64,000 bases of DNA, taken from positions 417,810 to 481,809 of the forward strand of contig CBDBKJ010000004.1 of NCBI GenBank assembly GCA_965206705.1, written 5' to 3'. The notes under the pieces are model-generated. The model worked only from the letters and a program-made list of their open reading frames with translations. It made no database searches and had not been told where the DNA came from. A program made the position numbers and the translations under genes. Origin of the DNA: Vicinamibacterales bacterium. GTDB taxonomy: Bacteria; Acidobacteriota; Vicinamibacteria; Vicinamibacterales; UBA8438. This document shows, piece by piece, positions 8,840 to 62,133 of this stretch (its first letter is position 1; each line of letters starts with the position of its first letter).

Positions 8840-8841
8840 GG

Positions 8842-10257: not shown

Positions 10258-10339
10258 AGGGCCGGAACCGGCGGTGGAGCGGTTGCCGGAGCGACGACGA
10301 ACGCACTCGACAATCGTCGACGATGACAGGTGGGAATCG

Positions 10340-21880: not shown

Positions 21881-21988
21881 CTAGTGGACCGTCCTGCATG
21901 AAAGCTGTCCATGCCGCTACCCCATTTCTTCAGCAATTGCGGGTGCGCGGCGCCGGCCGGACGGAAAAGCTCGTTCCAGAACAGTCAA
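21881..21988 (+). mobile_element. MITE-like 108-bp unit 1, starting at a CTAG
   Basis: Imperfect terminal inverted repeats: ctagtggaccgtcctgc versus the reverse complement of its end, ctagttgactgttctgg (13 of 17). About 92% identical to unit 2. Confidence 0.55.
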
Positions 21989-22096
21989 CTAGTGGACCGT
22001 CCTGCATGAAAGCCGTCCAACCCGCTACCCCGTCTCTTCAGCAATTGCGGGTGCGCGTCGGCGGCCGGACGGAAAAGCTTGTTCCAGGACAGTCAA
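21989..22096 (+). mobile_element. MITE-like 108-bp unit 2, in tandem with unit 1
   Basis: ctagtggaccgtcctgc ... ggacagtcaa (TIR 15 of 17). It is followed directly by the CTAG that flanks IS copy A. Confidence 0.55.
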
Positions 22097-38745: not shown

Positions 38746-38925
38746 GCGCGGCGGCATCAGCCCGCGGTGCGGGTCATGGCACCGGCCCGCTCGCGCAATC
38801 GCGCCAGCGGGCGTCCGGTCGCCGGCCGCATCCGACGGCGGCCGCGCGGCGGCATCAGCCCGCGGTGCGGGTCATGGCATCGGCCCGCTCTCGCAACCGC
38901 GCCAGCAGGCGTCCGGTCACCGGCC
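38746..38925. repeat. tandem duplication (period 98 bp) of the 3' end, including the stop codon, of the aminotransferase gene; a more decayed third piece lies at about 38716-38750
   Basis: 38746-38827 and 38844-38925 share about 82 nt with 5 mismatches. Both encode ..TGR(P/L)LARLRERA(G/D)AMTRTAG* on the minus strand (stops at 38757 and 38855). Confidence 0.85.
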
Positions 38926-42180: not shown

Positions 42181-46600
<4,420 letters not shown>

Positions 46601-46739
46601 CAGTCGAGTCCAGTGGACCGTATCGAGGGCAATCTACCCGACGTTCGGGCCGGGCAGAACCCTCCTGGAGTTACGCTGTCGATGTGATGACCCAAGGCGG
46701 GTGTCGATCCGGAACACGGATATTGATCGATTGTAGGGA

Positions 46740-46768
46740 AGGGGTCTATACGCGTCAAGGTGGCCCGA
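46740..46768 (-). promoter_or_regulatory. candidate sigma70 promoter upstream of secA
   Basis: Minus strand TTGACG-N17-TACAAT (-35 at 46768-46763, -10 at 46745-46740), about 140 nt upstream of the secA ATG. Confidence 0.45.
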
Positions 46769-46909
46769 GAGTTCGTGGCGAACCCCATTCGTGCGCGAGA
46801 ACCGCGAAGTGCCCCCGGCGCAGGCCCCGCCAAGAGTGACGCCGGGTCACCAGACAGCCGACGGAAGTTGCCGAACAAGGGAGGACGCCGTCCGATCCGG
46901 GTGGGGGAT

Positions 46910-47872
46910 TCAGTCGGCCGAGACCGAGCCGGACGCGAACACCAGCCGCAGGGGGTTCATCCGGCGGGTGCCGACGAGAACCTCGTAGTGGACGTGGGAC
47001 CCGGTGGCGCGGCCGGTGGCGCCGGCATAGCCGATGACCTGGCCGCGTTCGACATTCTCGCCGACGGCAGTCGCGAACTCCGACAGATGACCGTATCGGG
47101 TGCGCCGGCCGAAGCCGTGATCGATCTCGATCATCTTGCCGAGATTGCCGTTTCGCCCGGCTTCCGCGACCCGGCCGTCGGCCGTTGCCCGGACCGGTTG
47201 TCCATATCCGGTCGAGATGTCCAGAGCCGGGTGGAAGGTTCGCTCCTTGGTGAACGGATCGCGCCGGTACCCGTACCGGGCGGTGATGCGGCCGGGGGTC
47301 GGCAGGTCGAACGGCGTCGCCGCGGCCAGATCCTGTCGGAGACCGATACTGTCGCGGGCGACCGCGAGCTCCATTTCCAGCACGTCGAGCAGATCGTGCA
47401 GCATTTCGAGGGTCTCGGTCGGCGCCGCCTGCGCCACCGCCCGCAGGGTCGACGCGGTGCGGGAGCGATCCACTTCGGCCAACTGCGTCATGGCCCGCCG
47501 AAGACCGGGGGTGACGACGGACTCATCGCGCAGGGCCTCGACGACGGCCTGCAAGGCGGTCACTCGACGGGAGAGATCGATCGTGTCGGAGCTGAATTGC
47601 CGAACCTCGGTCTGGAGCAGGGCATTGAACGAACGCAATCGGTCGTTCACGGTCCAGCGAGGCGAAGCGAGCCATTCGGCCGGATCGAACCGCGACCCGT
47701 CGAGCCAAGCGGCGTGCGCCCCCCATCCGAGCGGCAGGGCGACCAGCAGGGCGAGCACCAGCTTCGGGCGCAAACTCAGCGCGAAGCGGTGAACGACTCC
47801 GGTCGAACGGTCGGCGACGATGAAGGAATATCGTTTGACCAGCGTCCACCTCGCAGGCCGGAATCCTACCAT
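46910..47872 (-). CDS. M23 family metallopeptidase (LytM-type) with an N-terminal anchor and coiled region
   Basis: ..FHPALDIS..G.PV.A.ADG.V..AG..G.LG..I.IDHG.G..T.YGHL..GATGRATGSHVHYEV. The start is uncertain (47872 preferred; 47953 is possible but would overlap the divergent gene). Confidence 0.85.
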   Translation of the reverse strand: MVGFRPARWTLVKRYSFIVADRSTGVVHRFALSLRPKLVLALLVALPLGWGAHAAWLDGSRFDPAEWLASPRWTVNDRLRSFNALLQTEVRQFSSDTIDLSRRVTALQAVVEALRDESVVTPGLRRAMTQLAEVDRSRTASTLRAVAQAAPTETLEMLHDLLDVLEMELAVARDSIGLRQDLAAATPFDLPTPGRITARYGYRRDPFTKERTFHPALDISTGYGQPVRATADGRVAEAGRNGNLGKMIEIDHGFGRRTRYGHLSEFATAVGENVERGQVIGYAGATGRATGSHVHYEVLVGTRRMNPLRLVFASGSVSAD

Positions 47873-47939
47873 GGCGACCGCGATTCGGAAAGAGACAACT
47901 TCGGCCCCGGGCCGAACGGTGTACGATCCGGCGGGAGAC

Positions 47940-49517
47940 ATGTCGTGCCGCATGTACTTGCTCGACCCGACGCACTCTGCCGCCAGAATCGCGTCCCGGC
48001 TTGCAGATCGCTTTCCGACTCGCCGCGAAGGGGGAGGGGCCGCCGCCCGCGCCTATCTCGACACCTTCGACTGGCGTCTCTATCGCGATTCCGGCACCGT
48101 CCTGTCCGATGCGCGGGACGGGTCCTGCCTCGTGCGCTGGGACAGCTTCGATGGCCGGCGCCGTCACCGCGCGACCCTTCCGGGGCCGCCCGGCTTCGCC
48201 CGCGAGCTGCCCCCGGGGGGCTTCCGGGACGAGCTGCTCGCGGTGACCGGCATCCGTCGGCTCCTGCCGATCGTCCGGATCGAGCGCCGCAGCGAACGAC
48301 TCTCGGTGGTCGACCACCGGGACAAGGCGGTCGTGCGCCTGTCGCTCGATCGCGGGACCGCCACCGGCCGGACGGGGCGGCGCCGGCGGCTGCCCTCGAC
48401 CCTGCGCCTCACCCGGATGACCGGGTACGAGCGCGCCTACGCCGGCGTTCGCCGCTTTCTCGAGCAGGACCTCGGCCTGGCGCAGGGACCGGAGGGCGAG
48501 CTCGATCTGGCTCTGGCCGCGGTCGGCCGGCAACCGGGTGACTACACCGGGAAGGTCGAGCTGAACCTCGAGTCGGCGGGTCGCACCGACCGCACGATGA
48601 AGCGCATCCTGGCCGCGCTGTGGGAGATGATGCAGGTCAACGAGGACGGTCTCCGCCAGGATCTCGATCCGGAGTTCCTGCATGATTTCCGCGTCGCGGT
48701 GCGGCGGACCCGTTCCTGTCTCGGCCAGGTCGGGGAGGTGTTCGACGAGAACGTGACCCGTCGGTTCGCCGGCGAGTTCGCCTGGCTCGGACAATTGACC
48801 GGTCCGTCTCGGGACCTCGACGTCCATCTGCTCAACCTGCGCGCCTGGGAAGCCGAAATGCCGGCCCTGGCGGGCGGCGGTCTGGCCCCGCTGGCCGACC
48901 ACCTGGAGGGCCGGAGACAGGCTGCCCACGCGCAACAGATCGCGGGTCTCGACTCGGCCCGATACAAGCGGCTGAAGCGGGAATGGAGCCGTTTCCTCGA
49001 GGCCGAAGCGGGGGGGGCGGGCGCGAACGCCGCCCGTCCGGTCGGGGAGGTGGCGGCCGAGCGTATCGATCGCGCCCATGCACGGGTGCGCAAGCGCGGG
49101 CGCGACCTGTCGGCGGAGACCCCGGCCGAGACCATCCACGAGCTGCGCATCGCCTGCAAGAAGCTGCGGTACCTGATCGAGTTCTTCCGGAGCCTGTTCG
49201 CGGCCGGCCGGGTGAATGCGTTCGTCCGTGCGCTCAAACGGCTGCAGGACGACCTCGGCGAGTACAACGACCTCCAGATCCAGCAGCGCGAGCTCCAGGA
49301 CACGGCGCAGGAGCTGTTGTCGGCGGGCGGGGCGAACGCGCCGTCGCTCCTGACGATGGGACGGCTGGTGGACCGTCTGGAATCGCGGCAGGAGGCCGCG
49401 CGACGGCGTCTCGTCGAGCAGGTCGGCCGGTTCGTCACCGCGCGCACCGCGGCAGAGCTCGGCGAGCTCCTGGCGACCCGTTCGGAGACCTCGATCTCGA
49501 ACCGCGGTGCATCGTGA
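47940..49517 (+). CDS. CHAD domain protein with an N-terminal CYTH-like region (polyphosphate-granule-associated protein type)
   Basis: The C-terminal half has CHAD helices with conserved His/Arg (HDFRVAVRRTRSCL, HELRIACKKLRYLIEFF). The N-terminal 200 aa are CYTH-sized but lack a clear ExExK motif. Start is at 47940 or 47952. Confidence 0.75.
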   Translation: MSCRMYLLDPTHSAARIASRLADRFPTRREGGGAAARAYLDTFDWRLYRDSGTVLSDARDGSCLVRWDSFDGRRRHRATLPGPPGFARELPPGGFRDELLAVTGIRRLLPIVRIERRSERLSVVDHRDKAVVRLSLDRGTATGRTGRRRRLPSTLRLTRMTGYERAYAGVRRFLEQDLGLAQGPEGELDLALAAVGRQPGDYTGKVELNLESAGRTDRTMKRILAALWEMMQVNEDGLRQDLDPEFLHDFRVAVRRTRSCLGQVGEVFDENVTRRFAGEFAWLGQLTGPSRDLDVHLLNLRAWEAEMPALAGGGLAPLADHLEGRRQAAHAQQIAGLDSARYKRLKREWSRFLEAEAGGAGANAARPVGEVAAERIDRAHARVRKRGRDLSAETPAETIHELRIACKKLRYLIEFFRSLFAAGRVNAFVRALKRLQDDLGEYNDLQIQQRELQDTAQELLSAGGANAPSLLTMGRLVDRLESRQEAARRRLVEQVGRFVTARTAAELGELLATRSETSISNRGAS

Positions 49518-49566
49518 CGACGCGAAGTCCCGCACGGCCGCCTCGACGCGCCGGAGAGGCGTCTCG

Positions 49567-50325
49567 ATGAGGGTGCTGGCCACCTACAACATCAAGGGGG
49601 GCGTGGGGAAGACGGCGGCCGCCGTCAATCTCGCCTGGCTCGCCGCCGCCTCCGGGTCGCGGACCCTTGTCTGCGATCTGGATCCGCAGGGCGCGGCCAC
49701 CTACTGCTTCCGGATCAAGATGAAGGTGCGCGGCGGGGGGAAGAAGCTGGTCCGGGGCAAGCGTCCGCTCGCCCGCTACGTCCGCGAGACCGACTACGAA
49801 GGGCTCGACCTGCTCCCGGCCGACTTCTCGTATCGCCATCTCGACCTGCTGCTCGACAACCCGAAGTACGTCCGTCGTCTGATCCGCAAGATCCGGGTGC
49901 TCGGCGGCGACTACGACTACGTCTTTCTGGACTGCGCCCCGAGCATCTCGCTCGTCTCGGAGGCTGTCTTCGCCGTCGCCGACGCCCTGATCGTGCCGAC
50001 GATTCCGACGACGCTGTCGCGACGGACGCTCGGCCAGCTCGCCCGGCACCTGCGGCAGCAGAGGACGACCGTGCAGGTGCTGCCGTTCTATTCCATGGTC
50101 GACCGGCGCCGGACCCTGCATCGGCGGATTTGCGACGCCCCCGACGAGATGCCGTGCCCCGTGCTCGCGACGGAGATTCCGTATTCCAGCATCGTGGAGC
50201 AGATGAGCGCGCGGCGGGCGCCCTTGTGCGGGTTCTCGAAGACGAGTCCGGCCGCTCGCGCCTATGCCGGCCTGTGGGGCGAGCTGGTCCGAAGGCTCCA
50301 GGATCGCCCGCCGGACGCTTCATGA
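49567..50325 (+). CDS. ParA/MinD-family P-loop ATPase (orphan, no ParB partner in the window)
   Basis: MRVLATYNIKGGVGKTAAAVNLA (deviant Walker A), LVCDLDPQG, and VFLDCAPS. Confidence 0.85.
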   Translation: MRVLATYNIKGGVGKTAAAVNLAWLAAASGSRTLVCDLDPQGAATYCFRIKMKVRGGGKKLVRGKRPLARYVRETDYEGLDLLPADFSYRHLDLLLDNPKYVRRLIRKIRVLGGDYDYVFLDCAPSISLVSEAVFAVADALIVPTIPTTLSRRTLGQLARHLRQQRTTVQVLPFYSMVDRRRTLHRRICDAPDEMPCPVLATEIPYSSIVEQMSARRAPLCGFSKTSPAARAYAGLWGELVRRLQDRPPDAS

Positions 50326-50825
50326 AGACGATTCTCCTGCTCCGTCACGGCAAGTCGAGCTGGGAGGCCGGACCGATCCCGGATCGCGAGCGGCCACTGG
50401 CCCCCCGCGGCGTGAAGGCGGCGCGCTGCATGGGCCGGTTTCTGGGGCGGACGGGGCCGGCCCCCGACCGCATTCTGTGCTCGCCGGCGGTACGCGCGGC
50501 CGAGACGCTGCGGCATGCCGCCGATTCGGGAGCCTGGCCGGCATCGGCGGATATCGTTCCCGAGCTGTACGGAGCCTCGTCGGGCGGCGTGCTGGCCTGT
50601 CTCTCGGCCGTTGCCGCCCCCGTCGAGACGCTCCTGGTGGTGGCCCACGAACCGGGCTGCTCGGAGACGGCGTCGGCGCTCATCGGCGGCGGCGGGGTGC
50701 GGTTTCCCACCGCCGCGCTCGCGTGCATCCGGCTGGACGTGGTCAGGTGGGACGAGGTCCGACCCGCCTGCGGCGAGCTGCTCTGGCTCGTCACCCCGCG
50801 CCTGCTGGCCCGGCTTGCCGTGTAG
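50322..50825 (+). CDS. SixA-type histidine phosphatase family protein
   Basis: ATG at 50322 overlaps the parA-like stop (ATGA). MKTILLLRHGKS (the RHG catalytic motif), ..ERPLAPRG.., and ..VVAHEPG. Confidence 0.8.
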   Translation: MKTILLLRHGKSSWEAGPIPDRERPLAPRGVKAARCMGRFLGRTGPAPDRILCSPAVRAAETLRHAADSGAWPASADIVPELYGASSGGVLACLSAVAAPVETLLVVAHEPGCSETASALIGGGGVRFPTAALACIRLDVVRWDEVRPACGELLWLVTPRLLARLAV

Positions 50826-50860
50826 CCGGCCGGCTCGACGTGTAGCCGGCCGGCTCGACG
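50821..50860. repeat. perfect 20-bp tandem duplication spanning the stop codon of the SixA-like gene
   Basis: tgtagccggccggctcgacg is present twice (50821-50840 and 50841-50860). Confidence 0.9.
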
Positions 50861-50975
50861 ATTGATCTGAAGCGGTGCAGACTCCCAGCCCGAAAGCCGT
50901 CGGCCGGCGCCTCCGCCTGCCGCCCAACCGACCCTCGAGGTGTTCACGCCGTCCTGCGGCGCAGAGCCCTGGCTC

Positions 50976-50997
50976 CTAGCCCGGATTTCTCACCGGT
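50976..50997. mobile_element. solo IS1380 end: CTAG plus 18 nt matching the right-end IR in inverted orientation, abutting copy B
   Basis: ctagcccggatttctcaccggt equals the reverse complement of the IS right end (..accggtgagaaatccgggctag). It extends 4 nt beyond the sequence shared by both IRs, so it is the right-end type. Confidence 0.7.
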
Positions 50998-52728
50998 AGC
51001 CCGGATTTCTCACAGCTCGTCGAGATCGGGCCTGATGCGGCGCGGCTGGGGTTCCGGGCGGCCATATCGGACGCCGGCGGTGGTCTGGATGTGGGCGACG
51101 ACGTGCGCGTGGCGCCAAAATCGGCCCGGTAAGCACACCACACGCGAAAGGACCCCGTGTCCCCCTGCAGTCGTGAACGTATGCCGCCACCTGGCCGACC
51201 GTCAGGCCGGGTCGGGCGGCGAGCGCAAACGTTGAGCGGCCATGATGAACAGATCGGCGTCGGGCGCCAGCTCGGACAGCGCCACCCAGATGCACCGCAC
51301 GGTGACGCGGACGTGGGCGCCGATCTTGAGCAGCCGCAGCCGTAGCGTATCGCATTGGGCGCGGGCGAGCCGGGTGCCCGCCAGCCCCCGGTCGCGGAGC
51401 TGCTGGAGCAGGACATAGGCCAACGTGGCCCAGTACAGGCGCAGTTGGTTGGCGCGCAGCGTCGCACTGCTGGTCCGGTCGGCAAACAGCGCCAGTTGCT
51501 GTTCCTTGATGCGGTTCTCCATGTCCCCGCGGGCACAGTAGAAATCCTCATACAACGCCTGCGCCGCCAAGGTGTCCGGCGGCAGCGATGTCACCACGAA
51601 GCGTGGATTGGCGCCCGCGGGCAGATGCTCGGCCTTGCCGACCACCCGGCGCTCCCGGCTCCAGCTCTTGCGCGTGCGATAGCGGAAGTCCGCAAACACC
51701 CGCGCGGCCACCCCGGTTTCCTCGCACTGCGCCTGGGCCTGCGCCAGTTCGGGCGCGATTTGTTCCTTCAACCGAACGTTCTTCGCCAAGCCGATGACGT
51801 AGTCCACCGCATGCTCTTCGCACCAGTTCAGCAGCTCGTCTCGGCAGAACCCCGAGTCCCCCCGAACCACGATGGGGACCGACGGCCATGCCTGCCGCAC
51901 CCGCTCCACAATCCGCGCCAACTCGTCCACCACGCCCGCCGCCCCGTCGATGTTCGAGGGCCGCAACCGCGAGCAGAGCACATGCGCCCCGCAGAAGATA
52001 TACAGAGGCAGATAGCAGTAGTTCCCGTAGTACCCGTGGAAGAACCGTCCTTCCTGCTGACCGTGCAGCGGATCGTCCGTCGCATCGACATCCAGCACGA
52101 TGCGCGCCGGCGGCGTCGGGTGCGACTCGATGAACACGTCTACCAGCAGGGCGTCGAGCGCCGCTTCGTCATAGGTCACCTTCTTGTACCGGTCAGCCTC
52201 GGCGTCCTTCGGCCCGACCAGTTCCAGCCGGTTCAGCGTGCTCTTCCCCGCCAGCGCGGCCCCCCGGTCTGACGGCCGCACCCGGTTCTCGCCCGTCGGG
52301 TCCGCCTTGCCCACGACAGCCGCCAACAGCGGGTCCCGCCGCAGGGTGTCATGGTCGTTCAGATCTTCGTAGCCCAACGCGACGGCCATCACACGCTGGG
52401 TCACCAAGTCCTCGACCGTGTGTTCGATCAAGCTTGGGTCCCGGTAGTCCTGGAAGCACTGCGCCGCGCGTCGGCACACGTCGGTGCACCTTTCAACCGC
52501 CCGCAGCAGCAATGCCCCGGCATTGGAAGTGATCGTTCCGCCCTCGAAGCTGGCGACCAGCCGACGACGACCGACCCGAGGAAACTCCAGCTGGATTGGT
52601 GGCTTACTTCGCGTACACTGTGTCGACAAGGGGCTGCCTCCGTGCATGGCTTGAAGTTATTGCCACAACAACACTTTACGCCATTACGGGCAGTCTCTTG
52701 TTCACCACCGGTGAGAAATCCGGGCTAG
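50996..52728 (-). mobile_element. IS1380-family insertion sequence, copy B (IS proper 51000..52724)
   Basis: Same 1725-bp element as copy A, in the same orientation. Flanks are gTAG (50996-50999) and CTAG (52725-52728). Confidence 0.9.
51202..52647 (-). CDS. IS1380-family DDE transposase (copy B)
   Basis: The 481-aa translation is identical to the copy A transposase. Confidence 0.9.
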   Translation of the reverse strand: MHGGSPLSTQCTRSKPPIQLEFPRVGRRRLVASFEGGTITSNAGALLLRAVERCTDVCRRAAQCFQDYRDPSLIEHTVEDLVTQRVMAVALGYEDLNDHDTLRRDPLLAAVVGKADPTGENRVRPSDRGAALAGKSTLNRLELVGPKDAEADRYKKVTYDEAALDALLVDVFIESHPTPPARIVLDVDATDDPLHGQQEGRFFHGYYGNYCYLPLYIFCGAHVLCSRLRPSNIDGAAGVVDELARIVERVRQAWPSVPIVVRGDSGFCRDELLNWCEEHAVDYVIGLAKNVRLKEQIAPELAQAQAQCEETGVAARVFADFRYRTRKSWSRERRVVGKAEHLPAGANPRFVVTSLPPDTLAAQALYEDFYCARGDMENRIKEQQLALFADRTSSATLRANQLRLYWATLAYVLLQQLRDRGLAGTRLARAQCDTLRLRLLKIGAHVRVTVRCIWVALSELAPDADLFIMAAQRLRSPPDPA

Positions 52729-54227
52729 CCGAACGACAGCCGGTAGCCGGCCTCTTCGAGACAGGCCGCCTCGGTCTCCAGATCGGCGCGGGTCAACGGG
52801 TGCTCGTCGAGCCACCCCGGGGGAAAGCGCAGGTCGAGGGTCTTCTTCGCGGCGGTGAGCTCGATCGGGGGCAGGGACAGGGGGCTGCGGCTCCGGTGCA
52901 GGACCACCGAGAGGCGGAGCGGCATTGCCAGCCGCTCCGTCCACACCGACCAGTTTCGCGGCAGGGCGGCGATGACCGCGGTCGGGAACTTGCGCCGGTG
53001 CGACCGCACCAGCGTCGCCAGCACCTGCTGCTCGGGCAGCGAGAATCCCGGCAGGTCGGCGTGCGCGACGATGTACTCGCCGTGGCGATGGTAGTGGTTG
53101 TGAGCGATGTCCAGACCTATCTCGTGCAGATTCGCGGCCCAGGACAGGAACTGCCGGGCGTTGCGGGCCTCGAGATCCCAGCTCGCGGCCACCTGCGCCA
53201 GAAGGGTCAGGCTCGTCTGCTCCACCCGCGCCGCCTGCTTCCGATCGACGTGCGCGCGGTCGGCGAGGGCCTCGACCCCCCGCGCACGGACGTCGTGATC
53301 GCGAATGCGGCCGAGAAAGTCGTAGAGCAGGCCTTCCCGCAGGGCGCCCTCCGAACGGCGAATCACGTCGATGCCGAGCGCCTCGAACACTGCGGAGAGG
53401 ATGGCGGTTCCGCCGGCGATCGTGGTCTTGCGTCTGGGGTTCAACCCTTCGAGCCGCAGCCGGCCGATGCGCCCCGCCTTCAGCAGCGTGTCCCGCAGCC
53501 GGCCGAGGGCCTGGGCGGTGATCCCCTTCCGGCCCCACCCGTAGGTGCGGACCAGGCCGTCGATGGCCCGGATGGTCCCCGACGCGCCGACCGCCTCCTC
53601 CCAGTCGAAGGCCCGAAAGCGCTCGGCAACCGGTTCCAGCTCCTGCAGGGCGGCGAGCTCCGCCCGCCTCCAGTTCTCGGCGGTCAGCCGGCCGTCGCCG
53701 AAATGGGCCCGACTGAACGTGATGCAGCCCATGTACAGGCTCTCCATGTGCCGGGGCGCCTCGTCACCCACGATCAGCTCGGTGCTCCCGCCGCCGATGT
53801 CGACGACCAGTCTCCGGCGCCGCGGTCCGGACAGGGTCTGCGTCACCCCGAGAAAGATCAGGCGGGCCTCCTCTATCCCGGATATCGTCTCGATGGAGTG
53901 CCCCAGCGCCCGTTCCGCGTCGAGCAGGAACTCGCCGGCATCCTCCGCCGCCCGCAACGTGTTGGTGCCCACCGCGCGCACGTCGCTCGGCGCCATGTGG
54001 CGGAGCCTCTGCCCGAAACGCCGCAGGCATTCGATGGCCCGGTCGCGGGATTCCGGACTGAGACGGTTGTGGGCGTCGAGCCCCGATGCGAGCTGCACCA
54101 TTTCACGCAGGCGATCGACGAGGACCGGCTCGCCCCCCTTGGTGCGGGCGACCAGCATGTGGAAACTGTTGGAGCCGAGGTCGACGGCGGCGATGTTCTC
54201 GGGAAGGGTGTCAATCGGGTTCGGCAC
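52725..54227 (-). CDS. ppx: exopolyphosphatase / guanosine pentaphosphate phosphohydrolase family (Ppx/GppA)
   Basis: ..IAAVDLGSNSFHMLVA.., ..VGTNTLR.., ..VVDIGGGSTEL.., with a C-terminal HD-like region. Start is GTG 54227 (or TTG 54260). The TAG stop lies inside the CTAG flanking IS copy B. Confidence 0.88.
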   Translation of the reverse strand: MPNPIDTLPENIAAVDLGSNSFHMLVARTKGGEPVLVDRLREMVQLASGLDAHNRLSPESRDRAIECLRRFGQRLRHMAPSDVRAVGTNTLRAAEDAGEFLLDAERALGHSIETISGIEEARLIFLGVTQTLSGPRRRRLVVDIGGGSTELIVGDEAPRHMESLYMGCITFSRAHFGDGRLTAENWRRAELAALQELEPVAERFRAFDWEEAVGASGTIRAIDGLVRTYGWGRKGITAQALGRLRDTLLKAGRIGRLRLEGLNPRRKTTIAGGTAILSAVFEALGIDVIRRSEGALREGLLYDFLGRIRDHDVRARGVEALADRAHVDRKQAARVEQTSLTLLAQVAASWDLEARNARQFLSWAANLHEIGLDIAHNHYHRHGEYIVAHADLPGFSLPEQQVLATLVRSHRRKFPTAVIAALPRNWSVWTERLAMPLRLSVVLHRSRSPLSLPPIELTAAKKTLDLRFPPGWLDEHPLTRADLETEAACLEEAGYRLSFG

Positions 54228-54315
54228 GAGGCATGTCCTATACTCGAAGACTTCACGCAAGCGGAGATTCCCCGCGAGATATTAACAGTGCGCTCCCGAA
54301 TCGAAAGGGGAGGCG

Positions 54316-56436
54316 GTGTCCACTAGAGCACGTCTCGCCGCCCTCGGACCGGCCCGGGCGTTCGTCAGCCGCGAGCTGAGCTGGCTGGGGTTCGCCCGCA
54401 GGGTCCTGCACCTGGTCGGTCGTACCGACCTGCCTCTCCTCGAACGCGTCAAGTTCGCGGGCATCATCGGCATGCTCCACGACGAGTTCTTCATGAAGCG
54501 CATGAGCGGTCTGAAGCGCGAGATCGCCAATCGCGCCAAGAAGCTGTCCATCGACGGCCGGAAGCCGGCCGACGAGCTCGCGGCGTGCCGCGCCCAGCTG
54601 CTGTCCCAGGTGACCGAGCTCAGCCGGCTGTGGCGCGAGGAGCTGGTGCCGGAGCTGGCCCGGGCGGGGTTGCCGATCCTGGCTCACGAGGAGCTGAATC
54701 GGGACGAGCGTGCGGCGCTGCGCGCCTACTTCGCCCGCAACATCCAGCCGATCCTGACCCCGCTCGCGGTCGATTCCGAGCATCCGTTTCCGTTCATCAG
54801 CAACGTCGGGCTCAACCTCGCGGTCTCCATCCCGCAGGGGGGCGACACCCGCTTCGTGCGCATCAAGGTGCCCGGCAACCGCCCGCGGTGGATTCCCCTG
54901 GAGGCTCGCCCGGGCGTCGTGCCGATCGAGCAGGTCATCGCCGCCAACCTCGACCTGATCTATCCCGGCTCGCCGCCCGCCGCGGTCCACGCGTTCCGGG
55001 TCACGCGCGGGGCGGAGGGTGCCGTCGAACCGTCGGACGGCGCCAGCGACGCGCTGTTGATGGAGCCGGGCAGCATCATCCGTCAGGTCAGCTCCGAGCT
55101 GAAGGCCCGCCGGTTCGCCGGCGTGGTGCGGCTGCAGGTGGACAGTGCGATGCCGGAGAGCCAGGTAGAGTGGCTCAGCCGTCAGTTGGGGATCGGCCCG
55201 GACGACGTCTATCCGACACGGGCGCCGCTCGGCGTGAGCGACCTCCAGCGATTCGACGGACAGGGCCGCGACGATCTGCGCCATCCGCCGCATCGGCCGG
55301 TGGACCACCCCCGCCTGCGCAGGCTGCTCCCCAGCTCTGCCGCGATCTTCGACGAGATTGCCCGGGGCGACATTCTGCTGCACCACCCCTACCAGAGCTT
55401 CGACAGCTCAGTGCTGCGGTTCCTGAACTCGGCCGCGGCGGATCCGGCGGTCCTCGCCATCAAGCTGACGATCTATCGCACCAGCCGCGATTCACCGCTG
55501 TTGCGGGCATTGGCGGAGGCCGCGAGACAGGGCAAGCAGGTGGCGGTCCTCGTCGAGATCACCGCGCGATTCGACGAAGCCCCGAACATCGCGTGGGGCA
55601 ACTTCCTGGAGAAGGAGGGCGTGCACGTCTCCTACGGCGTGGAGCGGCTCAAGACGCACGTCAAGCTCGCCCTCGTCGTGCGCGAGGAGCCGGACGGGGT
55701 ACGGCGCTACGCCCACGTGGGAACCGGGAACTACCATTCGGGGACGGCCAAGATCTACGAGGACGTGGGACTCCTGACGTGCAACGAGCCGATCTGCAGC
55801 GACGTCGCCACCGTCTTCAACTCGCTGACCGGCGTCATTCCCTACCCCGAGAGCAGCAAGCTGCTGGTGGCCCCGGTGTCGATGCGGCGCCGCTTCATCG
55901 AGCTCATCCGCCGCGAGGCGGAGCATGCCGGGGCGGGGCGGCCGTCCGGCATCGACGCGAAGATGAACCAGCTCCAGGACGCGGAGATCATCCACGAGCT
56001 CTACGATGCCAGCCGGGCCGGAGTGCCCATCCGGCTCAACGTCCGCGGGCTCTGCTGCCTGCGCCCCGGGGTGGAGGGGTTGTCGGAGACGGTGCGCGTG
56101 TTCAGCGTCGTGGGACGCTTCCTCGAGCACAGCCGGATCTTCCGGTTCGTCAACGGAGGGCAGCCGGAGCACTTCATCGGGTCGGCGGACTGGATGAAAC
56201 GCAACCTGAACGGCCGGGTCGAAACCGTTATCCCGGTCGAGGACTCCGGGTTGAAGCGGCAGCTCGACGACATTCTGGCGGCCTACGAGCAGGACAACTG
56301 CTCGGTGTGGGACTGCGGGTCGGACGGCGAGTACGCCCTCAGGACTCCGGCCGCCGGCCAGCCGCGTCGCGAGGTGCAGGCGGAGTTCATCCGGCGGGGC
56401 CGGACCGTCGCGGAACCCGCCGGCGTGGGGGTCTAG
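54316..56436 (+). CDS. ppk: polyphosphate kinase 1
   Basis: GTG at 54316 follows the RBS aaaggggagg. FVSRELSWLGFARRVL.., ..LERVKFAGI.., ..YHPYQSFD.., ..HVGTGNYH.., ..FLEHSRIF.. Length is 706 aa. Confidence 0.93.
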   Translation: MSTRARLAALGPARAFVSRELSWLGFARRVLHLVGRTDLPLLERVKFAGIIGMLHDEFFMKRMSGLKREIANRAKKLSIDGRKPADELAACRAQLLSQVTELSRLWREELVPELARAGLPILAHEELNRDERAALRAYFARNIQPILTPLAVDSEHPFPFISNVGLNLAVSIPQGGDTRFVRIKVPGNRPRWIPLEARPGVVPIEQVIAANLDLIYPGSPPAAVHAFRVTRGAEGAVEPSDGASDALLMEPGSIIRQVSSELKARRFAGVVRLQVDSAMPESQVEWLSRQLGIGPDDVYPTRAPLGVSDLQRFDGQGRDDLRHPPHRPVDHPRLRRLLPSSAAIFDEIARGDILLHHPYQSFDSSVLRFLNSAAADPAVLAIKLTIYRTSRDSPLLRALAEAARQGKQVAVLVEITARFDEAPNIAWGNFLEKEGVHVSYGVERLKTHVKLALVVREEPDGVRRYAHVGTGNYHSGTAKIYEDVGLLTCNEPICSDVATVFNSLTGVIPYPESSKLLVAPVSMRRRFIELIRREAEHAGAGRPSGIDAKMNQLQDAEIIHELYDASRAGVPIRLNVRGLCCLRPGVEGLSETVRVFSVVGRFLEHSRIFRFVNGGQPEHFIGSADWMKRNLNGRVETVIPVEDSGLKRQLDDILAAYEQDNCSVWDCGSDGEYALRTPAAGQPRREVQAEFIRRGRTVAEPAGVGV

Positions 56437-56589
56437 CCAACGCACCGCCGCCGGCAACCACTTTGGTCGAGCCGACGGTTGCCGAAAGCCCAACCGAACC
56501 TCCAGAATCGACCGCGAACAGGCCGACGTGGTGGCGGATGCCATTCGCACCCGCTGGGGGATTGGGCCTTGTCACCGCGCACGGAACAA

Positions 56590-56655
56590 TGCGAGCCAGC
56601 GCGACCCTACGGTTGCGTTGGAAGTTCGCTGGCGCGAAACCTCTACGGCGCAGGC
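56590..56655 (-). repeat. about 62-nt 3'-end / post-stop element, copy 2 (see 5701..5768)
   Basis: It covers the last codons (EPAP-TAG) of the kinase gene plus a downstream hairpin-containing segment, and is about 90% identical to 5701-5768. Confidence 0.7.
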
Positions 56656-59600
56656 TCCTGGACCAGGGCGGGGACGTCCGTGATCGGCAGCGTCATGGTC
56701 ACGGCGGTGCCTCGGCCCCGTTCGCTGGTGACGGCGATGGTCCCGCCGTTCAGCTCCACGTTGCGCCTCGCAATCGCCATTCCCAGGCCCGTGCCGGTGA
56801 TGCGGGTCGAGAAGTACGGCTCGAAGATGCGGGCCAGCACGTCGGGTTCGAGTCCGACGCCGGTGTCCCGGATGATCAGCTGTACCTGCGCGGCGTGCCG
56901 CACGACGCCGATCGCGAGGGTCCCCTCGTCGGGCATCGCGTGCAGGGCATTGTCGATGATGTTCGTGATGGCCCGCTGTATGAGTACCGCGTCGAGTTGC
57001 AGCCGGGGCAGATCCGGAGGCAGATCGGCCGACAGGGCGATCCGGCCCTGGAGGCCGGGTCGATAGGGGGCGACGACCTCGTTCACGAGGGCCGCCAGAT
57101 CCGCGGGCGCGCGCTTGGCGACGGGGGAGGAGGCGTAGCTCGAGAACTCGGAGGCGATCTGACGCAGGATCCGGACCTGCTTCAGGATCGCGTCGACGCA
57201 CCCCTGCAGCACCGGGGTCAGCGGCGATCCGCGGTCGGCGTGGACGCGGAGCAGATGCTCGGCGTTGAGCTGGACCGGGGTCAGGGGGTTCTTGATCTCG
57301 TGGGCGACCTGACGGGCCATCTCCGTCCAGGCTTCGAGACGGTGGGTGCGCTCGAGCTGGCGTCTCTGGGCGTCGAGCTCGACGGCCATCCGGTTGAAGT
57401 CGGCCTCGAGGATGACGAGCTCGTCGGCCGACCGCGCCGCCACCTGCTTCTCGATGCGGTCCGCCTGGAGATCGGATACGAGCGGACCGAACTCGCCCCG
57501 CGCGACCCGGCTGGTGGCCCGGGTGAGCCGCTTGACGGGATTGGCGATGCCGCGGGCGATGGCCCAGCCGACGAACCCGACGACGGCGGCAAAGAAGAGG
57601 GCGAACCCCAGCACCCGCCGGTTGAGCTCGTCGATCTCCCCCTCGATCTCCTGTTGCCTCGACGCCAACGGCACCGTCAGAATTACGTCGCGTCCCCCGA
57701 CCCGGACCGGCGCCGCCGCCAGCTGATACCGGAGGGACCCGGCCGCGTCCTCGCCCACGAAGCTGGGCAGCTGGTCGAGGGCGATGGCGCGATAGACCCT
57801 GTCCGGCGTGCGCGTCGGCAACACCCCGGACGCGTAGAGGTCGCGGGTGCTCGTGGCGACGAGATGCGGGCCATCGAAGATGTTGACGTCCTGTCCGATC
57901 ACCTGACCGATGCGGACCAGGATGTCGTCGGTGAAGCGGGCGATGATCTGCCCGTCGGGCGACTGGACGGTGACCGACTCCTCGATGACGCTGCGCGCCA
58001 CCGCCGCCACCCGTACCGCGCCGGCCTCGACGTCGGCCCGCAACTGATCGGCGAAGTACCCCTGAATCAGGAGCGCCACCACCACCACCGGAGCCGTCGC
58101 CACCCCCACGAACCAGATCTGCAGCTTGAGGGCGAATCGCGTCCGCACCTCGCGGTAGGGCAACCGCCGCCGGAGCCGCGGAAACACCACGGCGGCGAGG
58201 ACCACCGCCAGCAGCACGAAACCGCCGGCGGCGATGACCAGCACGGCGATCTCGGAGAGATGCAGCAGGTGGTCGAACGCGGTGTGCGCCGGATAGCCAA
58301 TCGCGTAGACGCCGGCGCGGGTATTGGTGAGGAACACCTCGTACCGGCGGGAGTCCTTGACGAGACGCGTCCAGAACGGGCTGCGGGACGCGTAGATCCG
58401 CTCGAACAGGGCATCGTCGATCGGCCACGCGCTCTGGTTCGAGAGGAACGCCGGCTGCCGTCCCCATCCGTAGATGACGAGCTCGACCTCGTGGCCCGGC
58501 GCGCCCGGCGCCGATGCGCTCCGGCCGGTCTCGAACGGCTCCACGTAGGGACTGCGCGAGGCAATGAACGGCAGCGACTCGTAGTCGACCTGCGCGACGT
58601 GGACGACCACGCCGCCGGCAGGGGTTCCACCCGCGCCGCCGCCGGGTCCGCAGAAGCCCCGTTCGGCATGCAGCATGCGGCGCTCTTCGGCGCCGAACGG
58701 CGCAACTTCGCCGAATACCTCCCATTGGCAGCCGGTGCCGGTCCACCGCGAGGCGGTCACCGAGTCGGGGATGTTCAGGGCGAATCGGCTCTGCAGCTCG
58801 CCCGTCGGTCCGAAGATCTCGACGGCCGAGGTCAACCTGGACGCGGCGAGGGCGGTCCGGTTCCAGATGCCGAACGCGGAATCGATGCCGGTTCCGGTCT
58901 GGTCCGGCGCCCCGGACAACGCCTGCAGGGCCGGCCGGGCGCGGAGCTCGGCGTCGATCTCCTCGAGGGTCCGGTCGAGCTGGCGGTTGAGGTCCTGCGG
59001 ATGCTCGGCCGCCCGCACGGCGTAGCCGGTCGCCACGAGATTGCGCTTCGCCTCGTCGCTCAGGGACACGAGCGAGAGATACAGGGGCAGCGCCGGCACC
59101 AGGATGGCGCACAGGGTCGCGAGCAGGCGGGTCACCGGATCGGTGCGGCGGAACCAGTGCATCAACCGCTGCCCGCGGAACGCGAGGACGCTCCCGGCCA
59201 GGCACAACAGCAGCGATGGCGCGAGCGGCGCCCATCCCGCGGCGGCGGCGAGACCGGCGGGGACCAGGATCGACAGCAGCAACCGCCAGGCGCGCCGCGA
59301 GAGCGGCCGGACCGGCCACCGGGCGAGGGCGATGGCCATCAGCAGCGCCGTGGCCCACACCGTCGAGGCGGTTGCGAGGACGAGCGCGAGCTGGAGAGCG
59401 GTTCGGGCCGGGTCGAACGGCTGCAGGGACGTGTGCAGCAGGTCCATCGACGCGCCGGCCACCGTGTCCTGCAGGAACCGGTGGTGGATTCCGAGCAGCG
59501 CGGTCATCAGCACCAACGCGCCCGGGGGCACGGCCCCGAGTCCGGTCTTCGTTTCCGAGCGCCGGGCCGGCCTGAACCACTGTCTGCGGTTGGCGCTCTC

Positions 59601-60644
59601 ACCTGCCAGCACGACCAGCACCGTACCGACGGCGGCGGCCAGCAACAGGTCCACGGCGGTGCGCAGGAGTTGCGGGGCCAGGGCGGAACGATAGGCGGCC
59701 GGCGACAGCAGGCGTCCCGCGAACAGGTCCGGCGGGCCCGCCAGCCACAGCCAGCCCCCCGCGGCCAGCGTCGCGGTGGCCGCGATGACCGACGGCCGCA
59801 GGTGGCCCAGACGTGTTCGCCCCGCCAGCGCGCGGCCGCCGGCGGCGAGGGTGGTTGCCGCCAGCACGACGAGGAAGAGCGCGACGACGCGGCGTCGCCA
59901 GCGGGTGCGCACCCGGTCGATCTCGTCGAGGCTGATCGAGACGCCCATGCGCGCCGCCCCGTCCGCCCCCGCTGCATCGAACCGGTACACGCGGGGGTCG
60001 CCGCCGCGATCGTCGCCGGTACGCAGGACCGCATCGCCGACCGAGGTCCGGGCGATGAAACCCCCATCGGGATCTTCGCTCGCGCGGGCGGACGAGATGA
60101 CGCGCTCGACGACGACCGTCCCGAGCCGGCGGGCCGGCCCGCCAGGTTGAGGGGCCGGCTCGACGATGGGTTCGACGTGGACGAGCCGCAGCCCCGCGGG
60201 GCCGACCTCGGCGAACCCGGTGGGACCGGACTGGAGGCGTTCCGGACTCAGCTCGGCGGGATGACCGTGCCACGCGCGGGGGACCGCACGTGCGTCGTAG
60301 ACGGTGATCGCCAGATCGGCGACGGTCGGGTCGCCGTCGGCGGCGCGCAGGATATCGAAGACCCGCCGGACCGCCGGTGGATCGCCGGCCAGACCGTCCT
60401 GCACCTCGGCACGCCCGGCCAGCCCCTGCGCGGCGCGCGTCAGTGCCGCATCCACCCCGGCGACATGCGTCGTGATCTCGCGGACCGCCCGCGCGGTCGC
60501 GGCGGCGTGGTCGCCGACCAGCCCCCGTTCCAGGGCGGCGCCGAGCAGCAGGACCGCGAGGGCCGCGATTCCGCCGCCGCCGATCAGACGAGACCAGCCG
60601 GAAACGGGCCGCCGCCGGGTTGCCTGTCCTCGCCCCGATTCCAC
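56643..60644 (-). CDS. very large NtrY-like sensor histidine kinase (extended multi-TM / periplasmic N-terminus, HAMP, HisKA, HATPase)
   Basis: The C-terminus has ..ARQVAHEIKNPLTPVQLNAEHL.., ..NIIDNALHAM.., ..DTGVGL.., ..GTGLGMAIARR.. The GTG at 60644 (VESGRGQATRRRPVSGWSRLIGGGGIAALAVLLLG) is chosen as the start. The ORF upstream of it is Arg/Pro-rich noise. Confidence 0.8.
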   Translation of the reverse strand: MESGRGQATRRRPVSGWSRLIGGGGIAALAVLLLGAALERGLVGDHAAATARAVREITTHVAGVDAALTRAAQGLAGRAEVQDGLAGDPPAVRRVFDILRAADGDPTVADLAITVYDARAVPRAWHGHPAELSPERLQSGPTGFAEVGPAGLRLVHVEPIVEPAPQPGGPARRLGTVVVERVISSARASEDPDGGFIARTSVGDAVLRTGDDRGGDPRVYRFDAAGADGAARMGVSISLDEIDRVRTRWRRRVVALFLVVLAATTLAAGGRALAGRTRLGHLRPSVIAATATLAAGGWLWLAGPPDLFAGRLLSPAAYRSALAPQLLRTAVDLLLAAAVGTVLVVLAGESANRRQWFRPARRSETKTGLGAVPPGALVLMTALLGIHHRFLQDTVAGASMDLLHTSLQPFDPARTALQLALVLATASTVWATALLMAIALARWPVRPLSRRAWRLLLSILVPAGLAAAAGWAPLAPSLLLCLAGSVLAFRGQRLMHWFRRTDPVTRLLATLCAILVPALPLYLSLVSLSDEAKRNLVATGYAVRAAEHPQDLNRQLDRTLEEIDAELRARPALQALSGAPDQTGTGIDSAFGIWNRTALAASRLTSAVEIFGPTGELQSRFALNIPDSVTASRWTGTGCQWEVFGEVAPFGAEERRMLHAERGFCGPGGGAGGTPAGGVVVHVAQVDYESLPFIASRSPYVEPFETGRSASAPGAPGHEVELVIYGWGRQPAFLSNQSAWPIDDALFERIYASRSPFWTRLVKDSRRYEVFLTNTRAGVYAIGYPAHTAFDHLLHLSEIAVLVIAAGGFVLLAVVLAAVVFPRLRRRLPYREVRTRFALKLQIWFVGVATAPVVVVALLIQGYFADQLRADVEAGAVRVAAVARSVIEESVTVQSPDGQIIARFTDDILVRIGQVIGQDVNIFDGPHLVATSTRDLYASGVLPTRTPDRVYRAIALDQLPSFVGEDAAGSLRYQLAAAPVRVGGRDVILTVPLASRQQEIEGEIDELNRRVLGFALFFAAVVGFVGWAIARGIANPVKRLTRATSRVARGEFGPLVSDLQADRIEKQVAARSADELVILEADFNRMAVELDAQRRQLERTHRLEAWTEMARQVAHEIKNPLTPVQLNAEHLLRVHADRGSPLTPVLQGCVDAILKQVRILRQIASEFSSYASSPVAKRAPADLAALVNEVVAPYRPGLQGRIALSADLPPDLPRLQLDAVLIQRAITNIIDNALHAMPDEGTLAIGVVRHAAQVQLIIRDTGVGLEPDVLARIFEPYFSTRITGTGLGMAIARRNVELNGGTIAVTSERGRGTAVTMTLPITDVPALVQEPAP

Positions 60645-60756
60645 GATGAGGCCAGCATACCGCAGGAGCCCGGGGGGGCAGGCAGCCCGCCGCCGCGAAC
60701 CTGCTGCATGCAACCGGTGCGACCAGGGATGCCGCCACGGGCGGTCGGGCGGCACC

Positions 60757-62133
60757 TCACCGCGGCGGGGCCGGAGCCGGCAGGTCGGCCGGCGCGGGCG
60801 CGTCCGTCTCCGGGTCGGCCGCACCAGCGGGTGCGGTCTCCCCGTCGGGGGCATCCGCGGTCGTGGTGGTCTCCCCCTCGGAAGCATCCGCAGCCGTGGC
60901 GGTCTCACCCTCAGGGGCATCCGCCGGCTCGGCGGGATCTCCGGCGGCGTCGGTGTCGCCGCCGGAGTCGCTGTCCTCCTCCGCTGCCGCGAAGAACTTC
61001 TCCCAGGCGGTGGTGACGGCCGGATCGAGCCGTTCGGGCCCGCTGGCCCGCCCGATCGCCTGGAGCTCGCCGTCGGCGGTGAGCAGGAGCAGGAGCGATC
61101 CCTCACTCAGGGGGTCGGGGACCGCCAGGGGGGGGAACGCCAGCTCCGAGGAAACGCGCAGCCGATGGTAGACGGTGCCGCCGGTCGGGCCGTAGAGGTT
61201 GAGTTCCTCGCTCAACCCGCCCTGCATGATCAGGTCTTCCGCGTGCCGGGGGCCGGCCGAGGGCCGGACCGGCAGCAGCTCGCGCCACCGTTGCCCACCA
61301 TGCGAGCGATCCAGGGCCCACAGGATGTTGTCGAGCGAGGAGAAGTACACGTGCTCGTCGTCGACGGTGGGGAGGCCGGCGACGTCGCCTCCGGCGCGCC
61401 AGCGCCACCGGAGCGCCCCGTCAAGCCGGGACAGCCGATAGAAGTGATTGTCGGTGGCGCCGACGAACAGGTCGCCGGCCACGAGAATCTCCCGCGGCGC
61501 GCCGCCCAGCGGCCGTTCCCAGATCACCTCGCCCGTCAGGAGCTCCAGGGCCGCGATGCGGCCGCTGTCGAGAGACAGGTACAGGCGATCGCCGGCGATG
61601 GTCGGCCGGACGCTGATGCCGCCGTCGAAGACCTGCCTCCACACCACCCCGCCGATCCCGGCGTGCAGAGCGAGCAGCACGCCGGTCTCGAGCCCGGCGA
61701 TCAGCCACCCGGCCGTCCAGAGCAGGGGCGCGGACACGGACGCCTCCTGGGACGACGCCCACCGGACGTCGCCGGTCTCGGCGTCGAGAGCCACCAGACC
61801 CGCGGGGGTGGCCGCGTGGAACAGCCCGCCGCCGGCGGCGGGCTGGCCGACCACCGGCTGCTCGACCTGCCACAGCTCCGCCCCGTCGACGAGGCTGATC
61901 GCCACCACCCGGCCGTCGAAGAGCGCCGCGAAGAGCCGATCGCCGGACGCCACCGGCGCCGCCGCCGCGGGCGCGGGCAGGGTGACGGTCCATCGGCTGG
62001 CGACGGGCAGGAGCGTCGAAGGCGTCAGCGGTCCGGGCTCCGGGGTCCCGGGCCGCCGCTGGGCGGTCGCCGCGCCCGACAGCAGGGAGGCCGCGAGGAT
62101 GGCCGCCGAGGCGCATCTGATAGAGGTCTTCAT
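60757..62133 (-). CDS. secreted PQQ-like beta-propeller (BamB-like fold) protein with an acidic repetitive C-terminal tail
   Basis: ATG at 62133 (MKTSIRCASAAILAASLLSGAATAQ; no lipobox Cys). It has repeated ..DG..LW/RW.. blades. The tail is ..ADAPEGETATAADASEGETTTTADAPDGETAPAG.. Confidence 0.75.
   Translation of the reverse strand: MKTSIRCASAAILAASLLSGAATAQRRPGTPEPGPLTPSTLLPVASRWTVTLPAPAAAAPVASGDRLFAALFDGRVVAISLVDGAELWQVEQPVVGQPAAGGGLFHAATPAGLVALDAETGDVRWASSQEASVSAPLLWTAGWLIAGLETGVLLALHAGIGGVVWRQVFDGGISVRPTIAGDRLYLSLDSGRIAALELLTGEVIWERPLGGAPREILVAGDLFVGATDNHFYRLSRLDGALRWRWRAGGDVAGLPTVDDEHVYFSSLDNILWALDRSHGGQRWRELLPVRPSAGPRHAEDLIMQGGLSEELNLYGPTGGTVYHRLRVSSELAFPPLAVPDPLSEGSLLLLLTADGELQAIGRASGPERLDPAVTTAWEKFFAAAEEDSDSGGDTDAAGDPAEPADAPEGETATAADASEGETTTTADAPDGETAPAGAADPETDAPAPADLPAPAPPR
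60835..60933 (-). repeat. 3 x 33-bp in-frame tandem repeat within the coding sequence (11-aa acidic units)
   Basis: Units ggtctccccgtcgggggcatccgcggtcgtggt / ggtctccccctcggaagcatccgcagccgtggc / ggtctcaccctcaggggcatccgccggctcggc. Confidence 0.85.

Follow-up and report, generated by a model that had tools for sequence, protein, structure and literature searches.

A widespread pair of CHAD and ParA-like genes as a candidate system for the placement of polyphosphate granules

The genome of a Vicinamibacterales bacterium (Acidobacteriota; assembly GCA_965206705.1) carries a cluster of polyphosphate (polyP) genes on contig CBDBKJ010000004.1, within the 64,000-nucleotide (nt) stretch analyzed here (positions 417,810 to 481,809 of the forward strand; this whole stretch is hereafter called “the window”). 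In this cluster, a gene for a two-domain TTM-like/CHAD protein is followed by a gene for an ATPase of the ParA/MinD family. The conserved unit is this pair of a CHAD gene and a ParA-like gene, which is smaller than the whole cluster, and the recurrence of the pair suggests an undescribed ATP-driven system that places or partitions polyP storage granules. The other members of the cluster, ppk1, ppx, and a gene for a SixA-like phosphatase, are recurrent but optional neighbors, and they place the module in polyP metabolism.

Recurrence of the Gene Pair Across Phyla

A genome scan using one genome per species recovered 80 loci that encode the ATPase subfamily (47–86% identity), and synteny was scored by tblastn and by hidden Markov models built from its matches. 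The best genome match is a metagenome-assembled genome of Vicinamibacterales, in agreement with the origin of the window. One locus (L031) is cut by a contig end and was set aside, leaving 79 informative loci. In 69 of the 79, a full-length CHAD gene, with its N-terminal domain included, is located directly upstream of the ATPase gene and on the same strand, and this recurrence across phyla indicates that the adjacency of the two genes exceeds what is expected by chance. Where CHAD and ATPase are encoded by separate genes (n = 68), the pairs overlap by 4 or 1 nt in 58 cases and are at most 20 nt apart in 66. Such overlaps imply that the two proteins would be translated together at a fixed stoichiometry, and a functional coupling of the CHAD protein and the ATPase is, as judged from gene arrangement, strongly supported.

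The ATPase subfamily was detected by the scan in Acidobacteriota, Gamma- and Alphaproteobacteria (Pseudomonadota), Nitrotoga, Actinomycetota, Planctomycetota, Desulfuromonadota-type lineages, and Dormiibacterota. A homologue search added a member from Gemmatimonadota, and the pairing spans at least seven phyla. Amongst 33 diverse members, identity to the ATPase of the window ranges from 58 to 92%, with a mean column identity of 66%. A reverse search from the CHAD side identified CHAD homologues at 44–46% identity that are followed by the ATPase gene in three loci (L087, L089, and L090). In an Actinomycetes metagenome-assembled genome (L080, 6423–8771), CHAD and ATPase form a single open reading frame (ORF) of 782 amino acids (aa) with an in-frame junction (…RALTGGRPRMKVLATYNIK). 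On two Paracoccus plasmids of 296 and 369 kb (L091, 4299–7651, and L092, 3288–6653, respectively), the pair is part of an operon in the order 62-aa ORF, CHAD, ATPase, CYTH, and NUDIX. The module is present in the cultured organisms Paracoccus (P. marcusii or P. aestuarii), Thalassobaculum (T. litoreum DSM 18839), and Sedimenticola (S. selenatireducens), as well as in Acidithiobacillus according to published gene maps.

Clustering of neighboring ORFs and a Pfam scan of the 38 ORFs directly downstream of the ATPase gene found no conserved third gene. His_Phos_1 was detected in four of these ORFs and CYTH in two, while the rest are unrelated or spurious. The initial annotation, which was made from the sequence of the window alone, had suggested a dedicated granule-segregation or regulatory module on the grounds that a ParA-like gene is embedded and translationally coupled in a polyP cluster. 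Conservation of the neighborhood outside this genome was indeed found, across several phyla, for the CHAD–ATPase pairing. The idea of a dedicated module is supported for the pair rather than for the whole cluster, with ppk1 or ppx within 8 kb at 9 of the 80 loci and a SixA-like gene within 8 kb at 8 of the 80; the conserved coupling is that of CHAD with ParA instead of ParA with SixA.

Domains of the TTM-Like/CHAD Protein

Homologues of the CHAD protein are 525 aa long, at 81–93% identity. The AlphaFold model of the full-length protein has a predicted local distance difference test (pLDDT) score of 91.2, with a disordered and variable C-terminal tail, and a Foldseek search with the whole model matched Escherichia coli YgiF (5a60) over its full length (E = 1.8e-11). 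The CHAD half matched the Chlorobium tepidum CHAD structures 3e0s (E = 1.1e-45) and 6qv7 (E = 1.5e-45) in a phmmer search against the PDB, and a CHAD–polyP complex (6qva) in a Foldseek search (E = 4e-16; template modeling (TM) score of 0.91). Residues H248, R251, R255, R256, R258, H400, R403, K407, and R410 are invariant among 40 aligned CHAD members, and K408 is nearly so. CHAD domains have been characterized as polyP-binding modules (Lorenzo-Orts et al.; PMC6537752), and CHAD proteins are known to bind polyP and decorate polyP granules (PMC6537752; Tumlirsch and Jendrossek, 2017, as cited there). By homology to the C. tepidum CHAD protein, the CHAD protein of the window probably binds polyP as well.

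The N-terminal domain was identified by fold search alone as a predicted eight-stranded triphosphate-tunnel (CYTH/TTM) domain, with Foldseek matches to the CYTH/TTM structures 2gfg, 3bhd, and 7ns8 (E-values from 3e-5 to 1e-3). No Pfam family matched this domain in 10 family members even at E ≤ 1; PF01928 (CYTH) in particular is absent from the precomputed Pfam assignments of 120 homologues and from the same 10 members at this threshold. A profile comparison of the N-domain family alignment with the bona fide CYTH protein of Paracoccus also returned nothing. The domain is strongly conserved around the motif YxDTFDWRL, in which DTFDxR is invariant. The motif ExExK is the catalytic signature of active TTM enzymes. 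It was found on the first strand in none of the 40 aligned members, and the stand-alone CYTH protein in the Paracoccus operon carries EIERKF. We infer from the predicted fold and the missing signature that the N-terminal domain is probably a catalytically dead TTM, which would be free for interaction or ligand binding. Its family comprises 1185 clusters at 50% identity (E ≤ 1e-3), and nearly all members are 510–545 aa in length. In one 683-aa homologue (P0193), the TTM-like/CHAD architecture is preceded by a helix-hairpin-helix domain (PF14520), which would tie the adaptor directly to DNA.

Properties of the ParA-Like ATPase

The signature lysine K10, the Walker A residues K15 and T16, and the aspartates D37, D39, and D122 are invariant in all 87 sequences compared, as is the deviant Walker A motif K10-G-G-V-G-K15-T16. 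The invariance of these catalytic residues indicates that the ATPase is under selection for activity. The predicted model (pLDDT of 84.8) is closest to ParA (8ray) and Soj (2bek/1wcv), with Foldseek TM scores of 0.86–0.87; McdA, MinD, FlhG, and BcsQ are the next fold neighbors, and FleN is also among them. The protein has neither an N-terminal extension nor an obvious C-terminal membrane helix. Arg181, present in 85 of the 87 sequences, aligns with the arginine of the “MYDGRT” segment of Thermus thermophilus Soj, at a position that we take to be that of the nonspecific DNA-binding arginine of Bacillus subtilis Soj. The family also has a specific basic loop at aa 46–70 (“FRIKxKVKGGGKKLxRGKR”) with a median of 7 Lys/Arg, the counterpart of which is non-basic in Soj and 8ray. 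The loop is flexible in the model (pLDDT of 60–70).

Examination of Pfam and RefSeq annotation revealed no parB or other centromere-binding gene in the window or in 12 loci (L001–L006, L087–L090, L091, and L092). The earlier description of a ParA-like gene without a ParB is thereby borne out, and no ParAB or plasmid partition locus was found in these relatives. An origin in plasmid partition was considered and rejected owing to the near absence of the ATPase from plasmids: only 11 of 72,556 plasmids were matched, these being large replicons (92 kb to 1.8 Mb) on which identity stayed under 48%. A CHAD gene is present in each of the three Paracoccus plasmid regions that were inspected.

Proposed Granule Placement and Alternative Explanations

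The CHAD–ATPase pair may be a ParA-type cargo system, with a mechanism modeled here on ParABS and McdAB. The TTM-like/CHAD protein would serve as the granule adaptor, with its C-terminal CHAD domain bound to the polyP granule, while the ATPase dimer, when loaded with ATP, would attach to a polyanionic matrix, for which the nucleoid is the most probable candidate. Contact of the granule-bound TTM-like/CHAD protein with the ATPase dimer would lead to ATP hydrolysis and release, and the depletion zones would then move the granules apart, which would keep them separate and evenly spaced and let both daughter cells inherit them. The protein–protein contact, the identity of the matrix, the stimulation of the ATPase, and the positioning outcome are proposed by analogy with these known systems. 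On balance, we lean toward placement or partitioning of polyP granules by a nucleoid-bound ATPase as the probable role of the pair, at somewhat better than even chances.

Several observations weigh against this role. Ten informative loci carry the ATPase gene without an adjacent CHAD gene. These loci fall mostly into two clades, one of Methylococcales and the other consisting of L063 and L070, with L008 and L015 elsewhere in the tree, and their concentration in two clades suggests few loss events, which counts in favor of the pairing. In the Methylococcales clade (L018, L037, L041, and L043; approximately 8000–11300), the ATPase gene is followed by a gene for glycogen phosphorylase or the Mg2+ transporter MgtE, which may reflect a partner gene at another site or a different cargo. 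In L063 and L015, ppk1 is adjacent to the ATPase gene. Of three more distant CHAD homologues, two are followed by the ATPase gene and the third adjoins ppx and ppk1 without it. A gap of 49 nt separates the CHAD stop from the ATPase start in the window, whereas the genes overlap in most relatives, and the single ORF of L080 could be an assembly indel as well as a true gene fusion. With respect to the proteins, no disordered basic N-terminal peptide of the ParB or McdB kind was seen in the 40 aligned CHAD partners, the N-terminus of which is short and variable, and the ATPase family has a hydrophobic residue where the second Soj arginine (“NVR”) aligns. Moreover, Synechococcus elongatus spaces its polyP without the involvement of the one ParA-family ATPase that it has, and phosin deletions in other species result in mild granule phenotypes (PMC13556221).

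The ATPase could instead be a nucleotide-dependent switch on polyP granules, comparable to FlhG, BcsQ, or MipZ, and not a positioning motor. Such a switch would set the site or time of granule nucleation, the size of the granule, or the engagement of the adaptor, and via it of Ppk1/Ppx, with the polymer. Synteny and motifs support this explanation just as they do granule placement, BcsQ, FleN, and MinD are among the structural neighbors of the ATPase, and the variable downstream genes often encode phosphohydrolases (SixA-like, CYTH, NUDIX, and Ppx); the failure to recognize a partner-type stimulatory peptide on the 40 aligned CHAD proteins also fits a switch. We nevertheless consider it unlikely, while a serious candidate, because in fold the ATPase is nearer to Soj/ParA and McdA, which bind the nucleoid, than to the regulatory members, the ATPase has no membrane-targeting C-terminal helix and no regulatory partner gene, and the conserved pair is devoid of any enzyme, as the TTM domain lacks ExExK. 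Another explanation is that polyP itself is the matrix, in which case the basic loop would hold the ATP-bound dimer on the granule and the CHAD protein would act as the turnover factor, independently of DNA, and the pair would coat or shape granules or keep them apart. The flexible, lysine- and arginine-rich loop that distinguishes this family from Soj and 8ray is consistent with such a role, as is the fact that polyP is a polyanion like DNA. The retention of the Soj-type Arg181 speaks for DNA, and to our knowledge DNA and membrane are the sole matrices of ParA/MinD proteins, which makes a polyP matrix improbable. Reviews on ParA/MinD proteins and on organelle positioning (the latter PMC13052382) list only these two matrices. 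If true, polyP would be a third kind of matrix for ParA/MinD proteins, and the pair would be a machine that uses ATP to keep an inorganic condensate in a dispersed state.

A signaling or enzymatic unit with no part in granule placement, in which the TTM domain would act as class IV adenylate cyclase or triphosphatase under the control of polyP and the ATPase, appears decidedly improbable. The CYTH-CHAD gene “ACAci” of Acidithiobacillus, located beside ppk and parA, has been read as a cyclase (PMC6416229), the N-terminal fold is TTM-like, and YgiF, which shares the architecture, was crystallized with tripolyphosphate and Mg2+ according to the title of 5a60. Against an enzyme stand the complete absence of ExExK from the aligned members and the failure of Pfam CYTH to match even at the most permissive threshold, and the EIERKF motif of the CYTH neighbor in Paracoccus suggests that catalysis is supplied separately. 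Very improbable is a fourth alternative, in which the ParA-like gene encodes a remnant or auxiliary ATPase for the partition of a chromosome, plasmid, or integrated element and lies beside polyP genes by chance. The best sequence and fold matches are to chromosomal Soj/ParA, the database label is “chromosome partitioning protein,” and insertion sequence (IS) elements are found nearby; all of these would be expected of such a remnant, but there is no ParB or centromere-binding gene in the window and the 12 relative loci, the CHAD adjacency recurs throughout the informative loci, the flanking genes are housekeeping genes (SecA and M23 peptidase), and very few plasmids carry a match.

Organization of the Locus

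Genes were called from the ORF list, Pfam, and NCBIfam, and start and stop codons were read directly from the sequence (Table 1). The gene order given by the initial annotation, namely CHAD, ParA-like, SixA-like, IS1380, convergent ppx, and divergent ppk1, was recovered, with all six features at or within a few bases of their original positions. An M23 peptidase gene and secA are located upstream of the CHAD gene on the minus strand. The stop codon of the ATPase gene and the start codon of sixA overlap as ATGA, as checked directly at the codons. The G+C content is approximately 65–74% across the region with no compositional break. An Rfam search of 46500–57500 returned nothing at E ≤ 0.1, and a scan for promoters and terminators found no signal above shuffled expectation. 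A role in anti-phage defense was rejected, since the PADLOC match consists of a 27-bit P-loop only.

Table 1. Features of the polyP gene cluster, with positions numbered from the first nucleotide of the window.
Feature	Position	Strand	Description
TTM-like/CHAD protein gene	47940..49517	+	ATG start, TGA stop, 525 aa, two-domain; PF05235 E = 3.7e-61
N-terminal domain (aa 1–200)	47940..48539	+	CYTH/TTM fold by Foldseek, divergent sequence, without ExExK
CHAD domain (aa 204–512)	48549..49475	+	Helical bundle, putatively polyP-binding by homology
ParA/MinD-family ATPase gene	49567..50325	+	ATG start, TGA stop, 252 aa; AAA_31 (Pfam E = 2.3e-29) and CbiA domains
SixA-like histidine phosphatase gene	50322..50825	+	ATG start, TAG stop, 167 aa; His_Phos_1 (PF00300) E = 1.9e-8
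CTAG and 17-nt solo IS right-end inverted repeat	50977..50996	.	Abuts the left end of the IS; direct reading of the sequence
IS1380-family IS, copy B	50997..52728	-	Transposase ORF 51202–52647 (-); NF033539, 398 bits
ppx, exopolyphosphatase	52725..54227	-	GTG start, 500 aa; Ppx-GppA and domain III
ppk1, polyphosphate kinase	54316..56436	+	GTG start, 706 aa; four PPK1 domains; TIGR03705, 710 bits

The translation of the SixA-like gene contains the RHG motif (“LLLRHGKS”) and the second catalytic histidine (“VVAHEPG”), and the protein scores 68.2 bits against TIGR00249, which is below the equivalog cut-off of 74.5. A SixA-like gene follows the ATPase gene only in Vicinamibacterales-type loci, L002/L003, L082, and L095. 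A relative at 60% identity keeps the polyP context, and three homologues at approximately 50% identity are found in unrelated contexts, for which reason a polyP-specific subfamily of SixA was rejected. Histidine phosphatases are among the genes commonly located downstream of ppk (PMC8003754), which makes it plausible that the SixA-like protein, a lineage-restricted accessory by its distribution, has a role in polyP metabolism. The idea that it acts on phospho-Ppk1 is pure conjecture and finds little comparative support, given that a SixA-type gene follows the ATPase in 4 of the 38 downstream ORFs and that homologues occur in unrelated contexts.

The IS between sixA and ppx (copy B) is 99.94% identical over 1732 nt to another copy in the window (copy A, 22098–23829). 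The terminal inverted repeats are CCCGGATTTCTCAC, both copies are flanked by CTAG as a putative short target duplication, and the DDE transposase (NF033539, 398 bits) is of the IS1380 type. Copy B occupies the interval in which sixA and ppx converge with their 3′ ends, and it interrupts no ORF or operon. The stop codon of ppx falls inside the CTAG on the right flank of copy B, leaving the C-terminus LSFG* as in IS-free relatives, and ppx is intact, with 92% identity over residues 1–500 to the IS-free relative L004. The IS-free relatives L004–L007 (86–92% ATPase identity) have the same order, SecA-M23-CHAD-ParA-SixA-<ppx-ppk1>. The earlier statement that the cluster is split by an IS is therefore overstated, as copy B lies between convergent gene ends and disrupts nothing; it is a recent, neutral insertion.

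Other observations concern the surroundings of the two IS copies. The solo repeat at 50977–50996 is the reverse complement of 52709–52728, and this 17-nt repeat could have been left by an earlier insertion or could mark a preferred target site. An exact 20-nt tandem duplication (GTGTAGCCGGCCGGCTCGAC in two copies; 50819–50858) extends across the sixA stop codon, and the gap between sixA and ppx is 13 nt in the IS-free L004 versus approximately 150 nt plus the IS in the window. Directly to the left of copy A, a 108-nt unit is present in two tandem copies with 92% identity (21881–22096). In L095 (1388–8376; 60% SixA identity), an ISAZ013-type transposase interrupts the ParA-like gene and only a 134-aa fragment of ppx is left, with CHAD, SixA, and ppk1 still present, which makes two independent IS hits on this cluster.

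Further from the gene pair, a 1487-aa ORF for a sensor histidine kinase (56643–61106, minus strand) is convergent with ppk1. Its HAMP-HisKA-HATPase_c domains are found at the C-terminus only, approximately 1180 N-terminal residues have no Pfam match, and the ORF is missing from the corresponding position in the close relatives L004–L006. Direct and inverted repeats of 80–180 nt with 65–80% identity are located at 7255–7978, 9720–10234, 14211–14726, and 15506–15839, pointing to paralogous genes of one family, or to a repeated element, within the first quarter of the window. An 82-nt sequence occurs twice at 38746–38925, with 94% identity and a spacing of 98 nt.

Implications for PolyP Granule Biology

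Open-access texts and preprints gave no account of polyP granules being served by a ParA-type system, although a description in a subscription journal is possible. Such a system is not included in a 2024 review of ParA/MinD proteins, a study of the seven ATPases of Halothiobacillus, or a 2025 review of polyP and bacterial chromatin. A 2025 review of organelle positioning lists only AlgP and states that whether polyP granule localization spends energy “remains to be seen” (PMC13052382), and a paper in mBio from August 2026 states that the mechanism of granule positioning has yet to be defined for E. coli, Caulobacter, and cyanobacteria (PMC13556221). The widespread pair of a putative polyP adaptor and a ParA-type ATPase offers a concrete, testable candidate for the question of granule placement, and the presence of carriers in culture makes genetics and imaging feasible. 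If the proposed system is true, polyP granules would join the list of ParA/MinD cargos, and a large CHAD subfamily (approximately 1,200 clusters at 50% identity) would gain a role for its TTM domain, which is probably without catalytic activity.

Comparison With Known Systems

The same neighborhood has been drawn for the folD-ppk-parA-CHAD cluster of Acidithiobacillus (PMC6416229, published in 2019; PMC10892726, published in 2024). Both papers note its conservation; one calls ParA a plasmid-partition protein, and the other reads CYTH-CHAD as a cyclase (PMC6416229, PMC10892726). Unlike the present analysis, neither proposes a function in granule positioning or shows a cross-phylum distribution. 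AlgP of Pseudomonas aeruginosa is so far the only protein with a link to how evenly polyP granules are spaced along the nucleoid (PMC9239181, PMC13052382). AlgP is a histone H1-like DNA-binding tether without an ATPase, and it is unrelated in sequence and architecture to either protein of the window.

The phosins PptA and PptB resemble the window protein in being CHAD-type polyP-granule proteins, and E. coli YgiF shares with it the combination of a TTM fold and CHAD. YgiF differs in that its CYTH domain is recognizable by Pfam and catalytically active, whereas the N-terminal domain of the window protein has neither ExExK nor a Pfam CYTH signal. We know of no ParA gene adjacent to ygiF in E. 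coli.

For the ATPase, the chromosomal ParA/Soj proteins (1wcv/2bek and 8ray) are alike in size, in the deviant Walker A motif, and in the catalytic aspartates, with E = 6.6e-32 to 8ray. Identity to them is only 26–30%, however, and the family of the window is set apart by the basic loop at aa 46–70, the putatively polyP-binding neighbor, and the absence of parB and parS. McdA/McdB is likewise a two-gene module, in which a small ParA-type ATPase is encoded beside a cargo adaptor with no centromere or ParB and non-DNA cargo is positioned on the nucleoid, and McdA (6non and 6nop) is a structural neighbor of the ATPase with a TM score of approximately 0.8. The ATPase of the window retains the signature lysine, and Soj is a closer match to it than McdA. 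In place of the small, disordered McdB, the window encodes a folded TTM-like/CHAD adaptor, the adaptor gene comes first, and the cargo proposed for the pair is a granule of an inorganic polymer.

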